A stretch of 64,000 nucleotides of DNA, taken from Candidatus Bathyarchaeota archaeon. GTDB taxonomy: Archaea > Thermoproteota > Bathyarchaeia > 40CM-2-53-6. Shown here piece by piece: positions 8,081-17,862 of this stretch; within the stretch, counting starts at the first letter, position 1; each line of letters starts with the position of its first letter. The notes below the pieces were generated by a model. The model was not told where the DNA came from, did not search any database, and was given only the letters and a program-made list of their open reading frames with translations. The stretch lies in NCBI GenBank assembly GCA_963706285.1, contig CAVPLU010000012.1, forward strand, positions 64,001-128,000, given 5' to 3'. A program made the position numbers and the translations under genes.

Positions 8081-10024
8081 CTACATCCTTTCCGAGAGGC
8101 GGATACCCAAGACTGCCATCGAGTTGGCCAAGACAACTCTGAGTGCGCGAATAAGCATAAGCCTCGAGGCTTTCAGCTCTGGTGTGTCTGCGCGAAGCAC
8201 GTTCACTTTTTCGTAATATTCATGAAACTTCTCAGCAAGCACATTGGCATAGCTCGCGATCTGTTCAGGCCTTAGTCTATCTGCGGACTCCGCGAAGATC
8301 ATCGGGAACTTCCCTATCTGCAGAATCAGGAGATGTTCAAGCGGGTCAGTCAGAGCGCTGTATTCGGGGGCCTCTTGGACATCGCCGGCTTTGGATAGAA
8401 TTCCGCCTGCTCTCGTGTAGGCGTAGTTGATGAAAGGAGCGCTGTTCCTTTCCAGACTTAACACGCGATCCCAAGTGAAGGTAATAGTCTTCGTACTGGA
8501 TGTCGAGAGCATCGCATATTTTATCGCCGCCAACCCTACTGTCCTGCTGATCTCTCGCCGATCCTTGTCGGAGAGAGTCTCCTCTCGGGACGAGATCTTC
8601 TCTTCTGCACGCGATACTGCTTGACTGATGATTTCATCAACACTGATGTATCTTGCTCTACGTTTGGACATCTTGACACCCGGCAACTCGACAATACCGT
8701 ACGCGTAGTGAACCAGATTCTCCGCAATCTGCTTCTGGCCGAGCGCGTAGAGTGCAAGCTTCAGCTGCATCTGAGCCAGTTTCTGCTCAGATCCTATTAC
8801 ATTCACAACTACGTCTGCGTCACGAAACTTCTTGATTGAATAGGCGATATCGCGCGTGACGTAGAGCGTTGACCCATCGCTTCTCACAAGCGTCAGCTGG
8901 GGCACTTCGTAGTTCTCAGCAAATCCAAGAGCCTTGTCTAGTCCGTGTGCTTTCGCTATCTTGTCGACGTCTAGCGCGAGCGATGTTCCATCTGTGATTG
9001 CAAATGGACTTGAGGACAACTGCTTCATCGAATCTCGGACTTCGCCACTCCACACCAGTTCGCTTTCCCAATCCCACTTATCAAACCGCACTTCCATTTG
9101 TTCAAGAGTGGCACGAATGCCTTTAAGAGATAATTCGACAACTTTTCTCACGATGTCTCGTGTCTTATCGTCGTCTTTCTCGTACCGAATGACGATCTGC
9201 TCAACCTCACGCATCGGGGCCGTTCTTGACCGGACGGATTCGACGGTCCTGTGGAAGAGCGTTGAATCGATTGACTCAAGCTCCCCCGCGACGGATGTCC
9301 AGTCCTCCAGTTCGCCGGAAAGCTCCGGGATCTTCTGTGTAGGGTCTGAGGTTTCACGGAGCCGTGAGATCTCAGTTTTCAGGGTTTCAATCTGAACTGC
9401 ACAGTTCACGCAGGCATAAAGGAGGCCCAGCCACTGGTCGGGTTTGCCAATGGGCGTTGGTTCACCTAGAAGGGAGTAACCGTAGGCGAGCATTGCCACT
9501 TGCTTCCCTACGTCGTCAATGTAGAACCTTGTCTGAACTTTGTTACCTCTGGCGCTCAAAATCCTGGCTAGTGCATCACCCAAGATTGTGTTTCTTGCAT
9601 GACCCAAATGCAACGGTCCACTCGGGTTCGCACTCGTATGCTCAACCACTATCCTCTTGGGTTCCGGCGTAGTAGTCAGTCCATAGTGTCCTCCTGCGGA
9701 TATCGAATCCGTAAGAATCTCCTGGCCAGCCTTAGTGAAGTCCAGATGGAAGTTCACGTACCCTGATCCAGCGGGTTCAACTCGATCTATAAGATCAAAC
9801 GTAGACACGTCTATGCGATCTGCGATCTTCTTCGCTATCTCCATCGGGGGAGTTTCAAATTTCTTCCCAAGTTCAAACGGGACTGATGATGCCAACTGGC
9901 CGAATTCTAGTGATGGGGGTTCCTCGAGCATTGCGTCAGGCAAGTCCAGATGATAGAGCTCTTGAATAGACGACGCTAGGGCTTGCGTGCATTGTTCTCG
10001 GAACCTTGTGAGAGTTGGTGGCAT
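8081..10024 (-). CDS. argS: Arginine--tRNA ligase
   Basis: VEHTSANPSGPLHLGHARN (HIGH), RSDGSTLY.TRDIAY, KMSKRR and DALR-type C-terminus. Confidence 0.97.
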   Translation of the reverse strand: MPPTLTRFREQCTQALASSIQELYHLDLPDAMLEEPPSLEFGQLASSVPFELGKKFETPPMEIAKKIADRIDVSTFDLIDRVEPAGSGYVNFHLDFTKAGQEILTDSISAGGHYGLTTTPEPKRIVVEHTSANPSGPLHLGHARNTILGDALARILSARGNKVQTRFYIDDVGKQVAMLAYGYSLLGEPTPIGKPDQWLGLLYACVNCAVQIETLKTEISRLRETSDPTQKIPELSGELEDWTSVAGELESIDSTLFHRTVESVRSRTAPMREVEQIVIRYEKDDDKTRDIVRKVVELSLKGIRATLEQMEVRFDKWDWESELVWSGEVRDSMKQLSSSPFAITDGTSLALDVDKIAKAHGLDKALGFAENYEVPQLTLVRSDGSTLYVTRDIAYSIKKFRDADVVVNVIGSEQKLAQMQLKLALYALGQKQIAENLVHYAYGIVELPGVKMSKRRARYISVDEIISQAVSRAEEKISSREETLSDKDRREISRTVGLAAIKYAMLSTSSTKTITFTWDRVLSLERNSAPFINYAYTRAGGILSKAGDVQEAPEYSALTDPLEHLLILQIGKFPMIFAESADRLRPEQIASYANVLAEKFHEYYEKVNVLRADTPELKASRLMLIRALRVVLANSMAVLGIRLSERM

Positions 10025-10164
10025 CTTGAACTCCGCCAAGCTATCATGATATACGCAGGCATCGTACGGGCACAACTTACTGAATAGATTTGGGGGAACG
10101 CTGGAAATGTGGACCTACCTGATTGCGTAATGACGCAGCTTAAGTATCTTTCATGGAACTATCT

Positions 10165-10180
10165 GCCTGCAGCTGCAGGC
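10165..10180. promoter_or_regulatory. Perfect 16-bp palindrome between divergent argS and tRNA-Arg
   Basis: GCCTGCAGCTGCAGGC, about 20 nt downstream of TATA-like CTTAAGTA (10139-10146); function unknown. Confidence 0.35.
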
Positions 10181-10232
10181 GAGAGAAAGAATGTGTTCTT
10201 GCTCCCTGTTGGCTGAAATGTCGGGCGGGCTT

Positions 10233-10333
10233 GGGCGGGTATAGAAAGGGCAGTTTCTCCCGATGCCTAGCCAGGATAGGGCACAGGCCTCCGGAGCCTG
10301 GAGTCGCGGGTTCGAATCCTGCCCCGCCCGCCA
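10233..10333 (+). tRNA. tRNA-Arg(CCG) with a 23-nt BHB intron at position 9/10 (10242-10264); CCA encoded
   Basis: Spliced cloverleaf: GGGCGGG TA|GCCT AGCCAGGATA GGGC A CAGGC CT-CCG-GA GCCTG GAGTC GCGGG TTCGAAT CCTGC CCCGCCC G CCA; strict BHB at the junction. Confidence 0.93.
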
Positions 10334-10386
10334 AGTGTACAAGATACGCGGTACCTTTTCGCAAACGCATTCTTCGTGCAGTGAGT

Positions 10387-11193
10387 TCATCTCGGTTTTC
10401 GAAGGAAGAAAACGAAGAGCACTACGAGCGTCATGCAAGCGACCGTTCCTACTTTTGAGAACTCCGGGATAGGGATACTCACGGTAGTGAATTGAACGTT
10501 TGAATCCATATTCGGGCTGTCGAAGTATGCTTGGTAGCGCCATCCCTCGGTGGTTGAGCCTACAATCACAAAAAACGCCAGAATATGGCCTTTTGAGATT
10601 GTTCGATTGACCGCGAAAGTCAGAGTGTACTTCGTCGGTGATTGACTCAGTATACTGCCAATATCGTACTTGTACTGGTAGAATTGATCACCAATTGGGT
10701 TGCCTGTGGCATCGGTTTCAGTCAGACCGAATGCGTACCCAGACGCGATTGGCACAGGATCGAGCGAGCTCATCCAAACTGTCATGGTTGCATTTCCTTG
10801 GATCGTCATGTCCGCGGCGAGCGGCTGAGTGATCCATGAAACGCCACCAACCCAAGCGTCGATCAATGCAAACCACAACCGTGTACTCTGGTGGATATTG
10901 CAGGATACAGCAGCAGTTCGCGCAGTTGCATACGTGGGGGGATTTTCATCAGCGCCATCGTAGATCAATATCGACGAGTTTGAGCTCGCATAGACTGAGC
11001 GATACATGTGGAAACTCATCTTGACTAGTCCCGATTGAGAGACCTGTTCCTCAGCCGCAGCTGCATGTACAAACTGCACGTAGAGCACAAAATTTGCTGT
11101 CAGCATCAGGACCACTAAGGCAAGGGTGCACCAGTTCTGCCAACCGATAGGAGATCGCTTGAGAAACAATATCGGACGCGTTCGATCAGGCAT
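10387..11193 (-). CDS. Secreted surface protein with PEF-CTERM-like sorting tail
   Basis: N-terminal signal peptide, beta-rich body, C-terminal IPEFS + TM helix + RKPR. Confidence 0.75.
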   Translation of the reverse strand: MPDRTRPILFLKRSPIGWQNWCTLALVVLMLTANFVLYVQFVHAAAAEEQVSQSGLVKMSFHMYRSVYASSNSSILIYDGADENPPTYATARTAAVSCNIHQSTRLWFALIDAWVGGVSWITQPLAADMTIQGNATMTVWMSSLDPVPIASGYAFGLTETDATGNPIGDQFYQYKYDIGSILSQSPTKYTLTFAVNRTISKGHILAFFVIVGSTTEGWRYQAYFDSPNMDSNVQFTTVSIPIPEFSKVGTVACMTLVVLFVFFLRKPR

Positions 11194-11307
11194 GTCATGG
11201 TTGACTTAAGGCTTTCACTATGAGATGCCTGAACGGTTCCTTCGATTATGTGACTTAGTGCGCAAGCATGAAGCGGTACTAGCGTTGGAGCTTGGTCAAA
11301 CAATTCA

Positions 11308-13927
11308 TCATTCTTGGTCAGCACAAGACCGTCTTCTTTGCAGTGCATAGACCATAATCAGGGAAATGGCTAGGATGAGCCCGCCTCCTTGAAGCTCAGG
11401 GAGAGGTTCACTAGGATACTTCAGATTGATATCCATAGGCGTCACCGAGCCGAGGGACAATTGCACTTCAGCTCCTTGAGTTGTGTATCCTGGGGATGCT
11501 GCTGCGATCATGTACTTCCCGGTCGGTAGCCACATCTGATAGAAGCCGTCCAGAGAGCTTGTATAAGCTTCCACGGGACCATAGGCTGTCACTGTGGCCC
11601 ATGAAATCGGAATCAAGTCTCCGTACATGTTGAATCCGGAGACGGTTCCGAAGACACGGCTTAGCTTCTCAAAGCTTACTGGGACAGTCACTATGCTTTC
11701 AGGGGTTGTTGTGACGGTTAATGTGTCAAGCTGCGAGTAACCAGGCACCCATACCACAACCCGATATGATCCAGGAGGTAGGCCGTAGTCCTTCTGCAAT
11801 TGACGGTCCGTGGTATCATAGAAGTTCACCCACCTCAAGGCAGGATTTCCCGCGTAGTTTCGGAAGCCGGCCGTCCAAACCGTCGAGTTGGCAGGGATCC
11901 GTGTCGCATTCGCAGCTACGAGAATCCCGTGAGTATCGTAAAGCTCGATTCGTACTGGTGGCCCTGGTGGCTGCATCCACGTGTAGGGTGTCGTATCGAT
12001 AGGCGCGATCAGACCCTCCGTCCTAAACGTCAATATCAGATTGATACGGGTGCCAGGTCAGCAAGTCCATCATCATGTCGCTCGCGCTTCCAAGCGACAC
12101 CACAACCGTATACTCCCTGGCCTGAAGATAGCCCACCGTGTAAGCCCTCAAGAGATACCGGTCAGGAAGTAGACCTGTCACATTGACGAAATTTACAGTG
12201 CGCGTACCATTCTTGTAATACGTTACAGTGCCCGTACCATTCTGCCTTCCGTTTGCAGTATAGAGTACTCCAGCTGAGCCTATCAACTCGAACCTGATAG
12301 GCGCATTAGGATACAACCAAGCGACTTCTAATGGCGGAGTCTGCCAATTCACCGATCGCAAAGCAATGAGTAGACTGCCCGCCCTAACCAAATCGTAACT
12401 GAGACTAACCACCGTGCAGCCTCCCCCAATCGCTGCCTGAACAAGCGTTGTCTGCACGTACCCAGGAAAAGAAGCCTGAATCACATACACTCCAGTAGGC
12501 GGTCCGTAAACTCCTCTTGAACCAGAAACCCCAACCAGCACACTCCCGTTGATGCTCACCCGCACTCACAAGAGTACCATACGAACCCCCAAGCGATCCA
12601 TCAGCAGCATACACACTAACCCTCAATACCCCGTCTTGCGGGACACCACAGTCCTCAAGCTTGACACCCCGGCACAAGTCGCCGCCCTCAGACTCACGGA
12701 AATGCACCGTAACAAGGAACGAGCCGCTCCCCCAAAGATCCATATTAACCACGATCTCACGCGAATAATCAAACACGTGAACACGAACCACATCATTCTG
12801 ATAATACCCATTCACACGAGCATTCAGATAATAATCGCCAAGCGCGAAACCAGAAACGTAATCCGCATAATCCTGCGGAACATGACCATCCAACTCCACC
12901 GACCCATTCAACATGAAATGATAATACGAAAGCAGCGGATCGGTTCTACCAGTCACAGAAACTACAAGACCGCCAGAATAATCCGACAATTCTATCGTGA
13001 TCAGCGACGAATTAGACACGCTACCCCAAGGAACTGGCCCGCTAACACATTTCGAAGTGATGAGGCCAGTTATTGTTGCGCTTGGATGCAAATAGATGTC
13101 GACGCCTTCCAACGATTGACCAGTAGAAACAGTAACCCTCTCACTCATCTCTAATGGAGTGAAGCCATCCGCTGAAGCATTCAACGTGTACGTTCCCGCC
13201 GCGAGGCCATAGATAGTGTAGGCACCATTCGCGGAAGCGATTGAAGTAAGCCTGCGCCGTGACGGTTCTACCTTGCCTAGTCGTACCTTCCGCAATAACC
13301 CTACCCGACACATCAACAGGCTCAGCGTACATTCCTTGCGTCCCATTCATCACGCGACCAGAAATGTACGCTGGATCCAAATCACATTTCACCACAACAG
13401 TCGGAAAATTCTCCGCACCTATCGACTGCCCATCCGTGAAGACCTTAACGAAATACCTACCACACACGGTAGGAGCTTCAACGTTGAACAATCTTATGAA
13501 GTAGCTACCGATCGGAATAGTACCGTTCTCGACAACTATCCTCCACCAGCCAGGCGCGATAGCATCCCTCGATCCCTGTCTGCCTAGAGATATGCGGTTG
13601 TAGTCATTCGTTATGCTGGTCCAAACACTCACGGTGCCCGATTGCTGAAAACCAAACTCAGGCGGCACATAAACCACAATCGAAGACACAACCTCGCTTA
13701 ACGTGACGTTTAGAGAGATGTCGCCTGTCGAATTCTGCAGTATAGCACCCTTCGGATAATCCAGCTTCACCACGCTGTCAGACGTGCCCAAATCATGAGC
13801 ATACATTCCAGGAGACATCTGCACCTTAGCCTGACCTCCCGGATTTGCTAAGGCATCTCCAGGGACGCAGCCGGTCTGCAATGACCAGCAACAGTATGAT
13901 GAGCAATAGTCGCTTAGAACAATTCAT
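11308..13927 (-). CDS. Large secreted protein with repeated carboxypeptidase-regulatory-like (transthyretin/Ig-like) domains and PEL-TM-RRR tail; several frameshifts
   Basis: Signal peptide from ATG 13927; four consecutive ORF pieces with G.Y.I.GL..GTY and PGY motifs; ends PLPELQGGGLILAISLIMVYALQRRR. Confidence 0.7.
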
Positions 13928-17726: not shown

Positions 17727-17828
17727 TGGAGCCGGGGGTGGGAGTCGAACCCACATTCTGCGGCTCTGCAGGCCACCGCCTGAACCGTTCGGCCTTCGGT
17801 GGTCACATCAGTTGTGACCAACCCCGGC
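17727..17828 (-). tRNA. tRNA-Cys(GCA) with a 26-nt intron at position 8/9 (17820-17795); CCA encoded
   Basis: Spliced: GCCGGGG T|G GCC GAACGGTTCA GGC G GTGGC CT-GCA-GA GCCGC AGAAT GTGGG TTCGACT CCCAC CCCCGGC T CCA; intron hairpin GGTCACA/TGTGACC with relaxed BHB. Confidence 0.92.
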
Positions 17829-17862
17829 ATTTTCCCCGGCAGTCGAAACTTCAATTCTTGCC

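Follow-up and report, generated by a model that had tools for sequence, protein, structure and literature searches.

A Bathyarchaeia tRNA-Arg(CCG) gene with a predicted intron between positions 9 and 10 and a leader copy of its 5' acceptor strand

The tRNA-Arg(CCG) gene and its interruption

The window, meaning the whole 64,000-nt stretch of DNA analysed, carries on its forward strand a tRNA-Arg(CCG) gene that is interrupted near its 5' end and preceded by a leader in which the 5' strand of the acceptor stem occurs a second time; a tRNA-Cys(GCA) gene on the reverse strand is a second such case (Table 1).

Table 1. Positions of the features of the tRNA-Arg(CCG) and tRNA-Cys(GCA) loci in the window
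Feature	Position	Strand	Remarks
TATA-like candidate promoter, CTTAAGTAT	10139..10147	+	about 74 nt upstream of the leader copy; conserved in the genus
Two small leader hairpins	10165..10200	+	GCCTGC/GCAGGC, 10165-10180; GAGAA/TTCTT, 10183-10200; read by eye from alignments
C-rich element GCTCCCT	10201..10207	+	conserved in the genus; complementary (with G.U) to the leader copy; RNAalifold pairing
Leader copy, CGGGCGGG	10222..10229	+	repeats the 5' acceptor strand after a C that faces G73; putative surrogate (decoy) strand
Spacer CTT between leader copy and exon 1	10230..10232	+	last 2 bases lengthen outer helix h
tRNA-Arg(CCG) gene	10233-10333	+	interrupted between tRNA positions 9 and 10
Exon 1, tRNA positions 1-9 (GGGCGGG-U8-A9)	10233..10241	+	
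BHB intron, 23 nt, tRNA position 9/10	10242..10264	+	predicted
Exon 2, positions 10-73 and encoded CCA	10265..10333	+	anticodon CCG 10291-10293; Rfam match 10265-10322; ARAGORN cloverleaf on the spliced sequence
tRNA-Cys(GCA)	17727..17840	-	second truncated Rfam match
tRNA-Cys leader copy, GCCGGGG	17840-17834	-	
tRNA-Cys spacer	17833-17829	-	
tRNA-Cys exon 1	17828-17821	-	
tRNA-Cys intron, 26 nt, at 8/9	17820-17795	-	placed by intronless orthologs
tRNA-Cys exon 2 with CCA	17794-17727	-	

Exon 2 of the tRNA-Arg gene runs in order through GCCTAGCCAGGATAGGGC, the anticodon arm (loop CTCCGGA), the T arm, CCCGCCC, G and CCA, with its 3' end at 10333. The splice motif that the initial annotation had drawn around the interruption is present, with an outer helix h of TTGGG (10231-10235) and CCTAG (10266-10270), paired as U.G, U-A, G.U, G-C and G-C; a central helix H of four Watson-Crick pairs between CGGG (10236-10239) and CCCG (10259-10262); two 3-nt bulges, TAT at 10240-10242 and ATG at 10263-10265; and an inner helix h' of five Watson-Crick pairs between AGAAA (10243-10247) and TTTCT (10254-10258). 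Expressed in tRNA numbering, the outer helix consists of G3-C11, G2-C12, G1.U13, U-A14 and U.G15. The layout is the canonical one, a 4-bp helix preceding a 3-nt bulge on each strand, and h and h' each contain at least 2 Watson-Crick pairs, as in the strict hBHBh' form, whose flanking helices are defined in those terms in the part of PMC7714728 that was available. Cutting after the second base of each bulge does excise 10242-10264 (23 nt) and join A9 to G10, giving the predicted spliced product ...GGGCGGG-T-A + G-CCTAGCC; the junction cannot slide, because the bases that flank the two cuts differ. Since exon 1, the intron and exon 2 follow one another without a gap and in the usual order, a split or permuted tRNA gene, with its parts apart or reversed, is ruled out.

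The motif against chance and the gene finders

The BHB motif by itself occurs at chance frequency. A strict scanner (h of at least 4, H of 4 and h' of at least 4 pairs, with 3-nt bulges) finds the intron motif at 10236..10265, and on both strands of the window it finds 43 such motifs, vs. 29-50 in 10 block shuffles. Thermodynamic folding of 10229-10272 returns the same hairpin with two 3-nt bulges, the 3' bulge being shifted one base to the left, so that in this register H is reduced to 3 pairs and C4 is joined to G10. The stability of this local fold does not exceed that of its shuffles (z = -0.41). The BHB is not formed in the minimum-free-energy fold of the whole pre-tRNA. With the motif alone no more frequent than expected by chance, the case for a real intron therefore rests on context and comparison.

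The context is that of an intact tRNA gene which automated searches handle poorly, as had been anticipated: ARAGORN reports 0 tRNA genes in the 64-kb window and so misses it, and the Rfam tRNA match is truncated, covering model positions 10-63 only and starting exactly at 10265, with 33.1 bits against a threshold of 29 bits. After removal of 10242-10264 in the script, ARAGORN calls Arg(ccg), 78 nt long with CCA, as a regular cloverleaf in which the acceptor, D, anticodon and T arms are all intact. End-proximal tRNA introns are a known class, since tRNAscan-SE 2.0, according to the available text of PMC8450103, lengthens its candidates by 60 nt in seeking introns near the 5' or 3' end. Genes of this kind, invisible to ARAGORN and truncated in Rfam, make Bathyarchaeia genomes seem poor in tRNA.

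Orthologs and covariation of the intron

A search of 41 genomes with the whole precursor region, intron included, matched the window's own genome, eight of the nine other genomes of the same genus and one genome (G036) from a different family; the ninth same-genus genome, G004, gave a weak T-arm match only. An exact-pattern search (exon 1 end, a gap of 15-45 nt, exon 2 start) through 185,579 species genomes found 26 loci, 25 of them in Bathyarchaeia or Thermoproteota and one a chance match in an actinomycete. Pooling the orthologs yields 25 distinct sequences in which the intron is kept at 9/10, a count that overstates independence in that the sequences are related. Some of the pattern-search loci are Arg(CCU) genes of Bathyarchaeum-like genomes that have further introns; at L050, L052, L054 and similar loci, the 9/10 intron and a leader copy are joined by at least 2 additional introns downstream.

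The most direct comparison is offered by two orthologs, L026 and L029, which have no intron and read GGGCGGG-TA-GCCTAGCC, exactly the product predicted for the tRNA-Arg(CCG) gene, in agreement with the initial annotation of a strict BHB intron at 9/10. In a third, L028, a D-loop intron stands in place of the 9/10 intron. Among the intron-bearing relatives it is the structure rather than the sequence that is conserved. All six h' pairs in the 25-sequence alignment have changed on both sides, with 91.7% of h' cells paired, and the structure as a whole is 87.3% paired, vs. 82.3% in shuffles (0/500 reach the native value) and no more than 55.8% once partners are slid. Covariation scores 0.243, vs. 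0.155 in shuffles (again 0/500). At the fourth position of the central helix, 10 of the 25 orthologs have a G-C pair and the other 15 have G.A.

The outer helix was also said to take in two leader bases, and the relatives agree: base -1 pairs with A14 as U-A in 20/25 and base -2 is paired in 21/25, although the G1-G3 pairs by themselves would already supply a minimal outer helix. The suggestion built on this pairing, that splicing precedes 5' maturation, gains support from its presence in most orthologs; the order itself is still something that we infer.

No contig of four metatranscriptome sets could be placed on 10150-10400, and a search of RNA datasets listed none covering 9600-11400, neither of which bears on whether the gene is expressed. 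The reading of the 23 nt as an insertion in a decaying pseudogene, rather than a spliced intron, could draw on the chance frequency of the motif. It is very improbable, however, given that the exons are intact and form a canonical cloverleaf, that the insertion is found at one site across families with compensatory changes, and that a genome search for a second Arg(CCG) gene, by its exon 2, returned none. We consider it very likely that 10233-10333 is a Bathyarchaeia tRNA-Arg(CCG) gene whose 23-nt intron at 9/10 is excised by the splicing endonuclease at a canonical hBHBh' motif.

Host genome and splicing endonuclease

The genome assembly amounts to 2.13 Mb in 21 contigs, with 89% completeness and a contamination estimate of 7.5%. 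It has two EndA-family genes, encoding proteins of 186 and 174 aa, both with PF01974 and PF02778 (the catalytic and N-terminal domain families), and the 186-aa protein is closest to the crenarchaeal EndA chains 2cv8_A, 3p1z_B and 2zyz_B. Two such genes fit a two-subunit endonuclease of crenarchaeal type, which the available part of PMC5829648 names as one of two types able to cut non-canonical introns.

Interruptions are frequent throughout the tRNA genes of the assembly, for which Rfam gave no more than 16 tRNA matches at E <= 0.001 in 2.1 Mb; each of the 13 full-length ones extends over 88-129 nt. A whole-genome ARAGORN run with introns allowed made 26 calls, many with implausible intron placements, and is excluded from the counts given here. 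Loci for tRNA-Met and tRNA-Phe occur on both contig C4 and contig C20, with flanks identical where read, which points to duplicated or redundant contigs, consistent with the contamination estimate.

A leader copy of the acceptor strand

The intron is itself a further case of the BHB class, and the more interesting part of the locus is the leader copy. A second GGGCGGG sits ten nucleotides upstream of the real 5' strand, from which it is separated by a spacer of 3 nt, and the C preceding it could pair with G73. The copy is present, as GGGCGGG, GGGCGGA or GGCGGG and with spacers of 3-9 nt, in all 25 distinct intron-bearing Arg sequences, and it is kept while the spacers and the upstream sequence diverge beyond alignment. 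In 20 Arg loci that lack the 9/10 intron, no 6-nt copy was found within 30 nt upstream (0/20); the nearest, in three of these loci, lie 43-47 nt away. Within each ortholog set the acceptor sequence does not vary, and hence there is no within-family covariation of the copy with the 3' strand.

The tRNA-Cys gene shows the same association with an acceptor sequence of its own. Its intronless orthologs read GCCGGGG-T-GGCC, which places the intron at 8/9, and among 19 loci the leader copy is found in 14/14 with the intron vs. 0/5 without it. The tRNA-Cys motif is relaxed, with a central helix of 3 pairs plus G.A and an outer helix of 2 pairs only.

A scan of the genome anchored on intact T arms, and so blind to genes in which the T arm or 3' strand is interrupted, gave 31 tRNA hits, including two that occur in duplicate on contigs C4 and C20. 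All five genes with an intron at 7/8, 8/9 or 9/10 have a leader copy, vs. none of the 26 others, most of which are interrupted elsewhere; these counts, like those for Arg and Cys, come from related sequences and are not independent trials. The five copies each match the acceptor strand of their own tRNA (GGGCGGG, GCCGGGG, GCCGGGA, GGGCCC and GGGGCTG). Apart from the two genes in the window they belong to a tRNA with a CAT anticodon on contig C4 (T arm 348294, +), which has a 9/10 intron; a Ser(GGA) tRNA on contig C13 (T arm 147664, +), with its intron at 8/9 or 9/10; and a Pro-like tRNA on contig C3 (reverse-strand coordinate 51296), with a 7/8 intron. In the Pro-like tRNA the upstream copy runs on into a stretch resembling positions 8-16. 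A conserved leader element appears to be tied to the intron.

As to origin, a perfect tandem GGGCGGGTAT-GGGCGGGTAT, comprising copy and real strand, is seen in three orthologs (L019/L055, L020/L053 and L060), and this repeat suggests that the leader copy arose by duplication of exon 1. A target-site duplication was considered as the source and is ruled out, for both copies lie upstream of the intron instead of flanking it.

Promoter candidates and the long leader

Of the 9 aligned sequences from the genus, 8 retain the candidate box CTTAAGTAT and one, L025, reads CTTAATTAC; the box resembles the CTTATAC upstream of the tRNA-Cys gene in the window. CTTAAGTAT is a putative promoter of the Arg gene; alternatively, it may belong to the divergent ORF whose end is at 10075. 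The box lies closer in the tRNA-Cys gene, with a conserved CTTATAC 22 nt before the copy, and in the Bathyarchaeum-like Arg(CCU) genes, with a TTATAA 24 nt before it. With a TATA box at 22-24 nt, the leader copy in these genes should be transcribed and lie within the primary transcript.

Between CTTAAGTAT and the copy, the two small hairpins show changes on both sides that preserve pairing in several orthologs when the alignments are read by eye; RNAalifold, run on the leader alignment of the genus, did not predict either of them. What it does predict is pairing of C-rich leader elements with both G-rich strands, in which 0/14 pairs have changed on both sides, and between GCTCCCT and the leader copy there are only one-sided C/U changes. 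No other sequence group has the box, the hairpins or the C-rich element. The long leader was also inspected by eye for a C/D-box small RNA, an idea given up since the candidate boxes are weak and too closely spaced.

A proposed surrogate strand in the precursor

To our knowledge, the textbook account of BHB splicing does not address the folding conflict that arises when an intron adjoins the acceptor stem. In the tRNA-Arg precursor the central helix would be made from tRNA positions 4-7 and the outer helix from positions 1-3 together with leader bases; for introns at 7/8 to 9/10 generally, the central helix would draw on acceptor positions 2-5, 3-6 or 4-7. A motif whose central helix is made of the 5' acceptor strand and the acceptor stem itself are mutually exclusive, and in competition between the two the 7-bp acceptor stem should win. 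We propose that in the precursor the 3' acceptor strand pairs with the leader copy in place of the real 5' strand, which meanwhile would be available for building the splice motif, with the rest of the precursor remaining tRNA-like; the 3' strand would thereby be kept from displacing the intron off the real 5' strand. Once the intron has been cut out and the exons ligated, the real strand, left without its intron partner, would take over the 3' strand, and RNase P would then remove the leader along with the copy. If the copy does act in this way, the action is probably kinetic, the motif folding first during transcription and the 3' strand, which emerges late, finding a free copy. The surrogate-strand step, which we somewhat favour, would entail splicing before 5' trimming.

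Folding calculations lend the proposal weak support. Under a constraint that imposes the BHB, the optimal fold has the copy paired to CCCGCCCG at the 3' end and retains the T arm, the BHB hairpin standing between the stand-in stem and the D region. In an equilibrium model of the Arg gene the BHB share falls from 2e-3 with the copy to 6e-8 without it. Including the copy raises the share in 12 of 13 Arg orthologs (ratios of 1.2 to 4e4), L025 going in the opposite direction with a ratio of 0.05, and in 8/8 Cys orthologs (ratios of 47-680), nine having been entered and one not having matched the search expression. Even with the copy, the BHB conformer is rare at equilibrium, at most 5e-3. The native share is reached by 29/100 shuffles of the 12 leader bases, so that G-richness explains much of the modelled effect.

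The proposal competes with other accounts of the copy. It can hardly be that the genuine 5' acceptor strand is the upstream copy, with the downstream one lying in a larger or second intron: both are complementary to the 3' strand and in three orthologs both are followed by TA, but most orthologs have a CTT, TTT, AGTT, CCT or A-rich spacer where U8-A9 would be expected, the upstream copy is imperfect in several (GGGCGGA, GGCGGG), and no single excision gives the TAGCC junction of the intronless orthologs, nor can a BHB be drawn for it. A weightier view accepts the intron and takes the copy for a mere relic of a tandem duplication of exon 1, with no role in splicing. The perfect tandem GGGCGGGTAT-GGGCGGGTAT of L019/L055, L020/L053 and L060 speaks for it, as do the extension of the tRNA-Pro upstream copy into a stretch resembling positions 8-16 and a thermodynamic gain that is not specific to base order, as the 29/100 shuffles indicate. 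A relic is nevertheless unlikely in view of a copy that has been kept in 25/25 Arg and 14/14 Cys sequences while spacer and upstream sequence diverged, that recurs in five tRNA genes of one genome, each time matching its own acceptor and with 0/26 among the others, and that is missing from all 25 orthologs lacking the intron (20 Arg, 5 Cys).

Co-occurrence of this kind would be expected equally if the copy served quality control, its pairing to the 3' strand (and, in the Arg gene, to G73 as well) keeping RNase P, CCA-end enzymes or the synthetase off the unspliced precursor without being needed for the BHB. That account leaves unexplained why the copy is restricted to introns at 7/8, 8/9 and 9/10, when most of the 26 genes without such an intron, and without a copy, are interrupted elsewhere, and as the sole function it seems quite improbable; the quality-control and surrogate roles are compatible.

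Taken together, a 9/10 intron with a leader copy that we propose as surrogate strand is the best explanation of the locus, to which we assign a probability of roughly 0.8. Whether archaea at large use such a surrogate strand as a cis-acting folding aid, as yet unpublished and present with every BHB intron that borders the acceptor stem (about 3/4 to 10/11), setting the order of transcription, splicing, strand exchange and RNase P cleavage, arising by tandem duplication of exon 1 and lost with the intron, is to our minds an even wager. If they do, a conserved leader strand would be a simple, RNA-only answer to the folding conflict; it would fix the order of processing and would help to explain how introns came to settle beside the acceptor stem.

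Comparison with known systems

Archaeal BHB introns at many non-canonical positions are well established, the extreme case being acceptor-stem position 3/4, and the available part of the review PMC4090602 names 3/4, 20/21, 22/23, 25/26, 29/30, 30/31, 45/46, 53/54, 56/57, 59/60, 'etc.' A literature search for positions 9 and 10, in that wording and not in the slash notation, returned no paper on archaeal introns. The Arg intron resembles the non-canonical introns of Thermoproteales and other Thermoproteota (PMC4090602) in being a short BHB intron outside the anticodon loop, and its host resembles theirs in having a two-subunit endonuclease and many interrupted tRNA genes; it differs in its position, 9/10 being unnamed in that part of the review, in its Bathyarchaeia lineage, and in always being accompanied by a leader copy.

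A leader copy of the acceptor strand is nowhere described in the archaeal-intron and pre-tRNA-leader literature searched, that is, in the available portions of PMC4090602, PMC4033280, PMC3218864, PMC2237900, PMC4390854, PMC7714728, PMC8450103 and bioRxiv 10.64898/2026.10.13.758758. The last of these, a census of Asgard tRNA intervening sequences, offers a parallel in its heavily interrupted genes, with introns on the D-arm side that standard software misses; unlike those genes, the Arg case comes from another phylum, and the word 'leader' is absent from the main text of the census as available.

The closest functional likeness is to the leaders and trailers of split and permuted tRNA genes in Nanoarchaeum, Caldivirga and Thermofilum (PMC3218864 and PMC4090602, in the parts available), where a transcribed sequence outside the mature tRNA pairs and so enables the endonuclease substrate to form, as we propose for the Arg gene. 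In split and permuted genes the leader or trailer itself forms the BHB and is cut off by the endonuclease. The Arg gene, in contrast, is contiguous, and the proposed partner of its leader copy is the 3' end of the tRNA itself, the copy taking no part in the motif.
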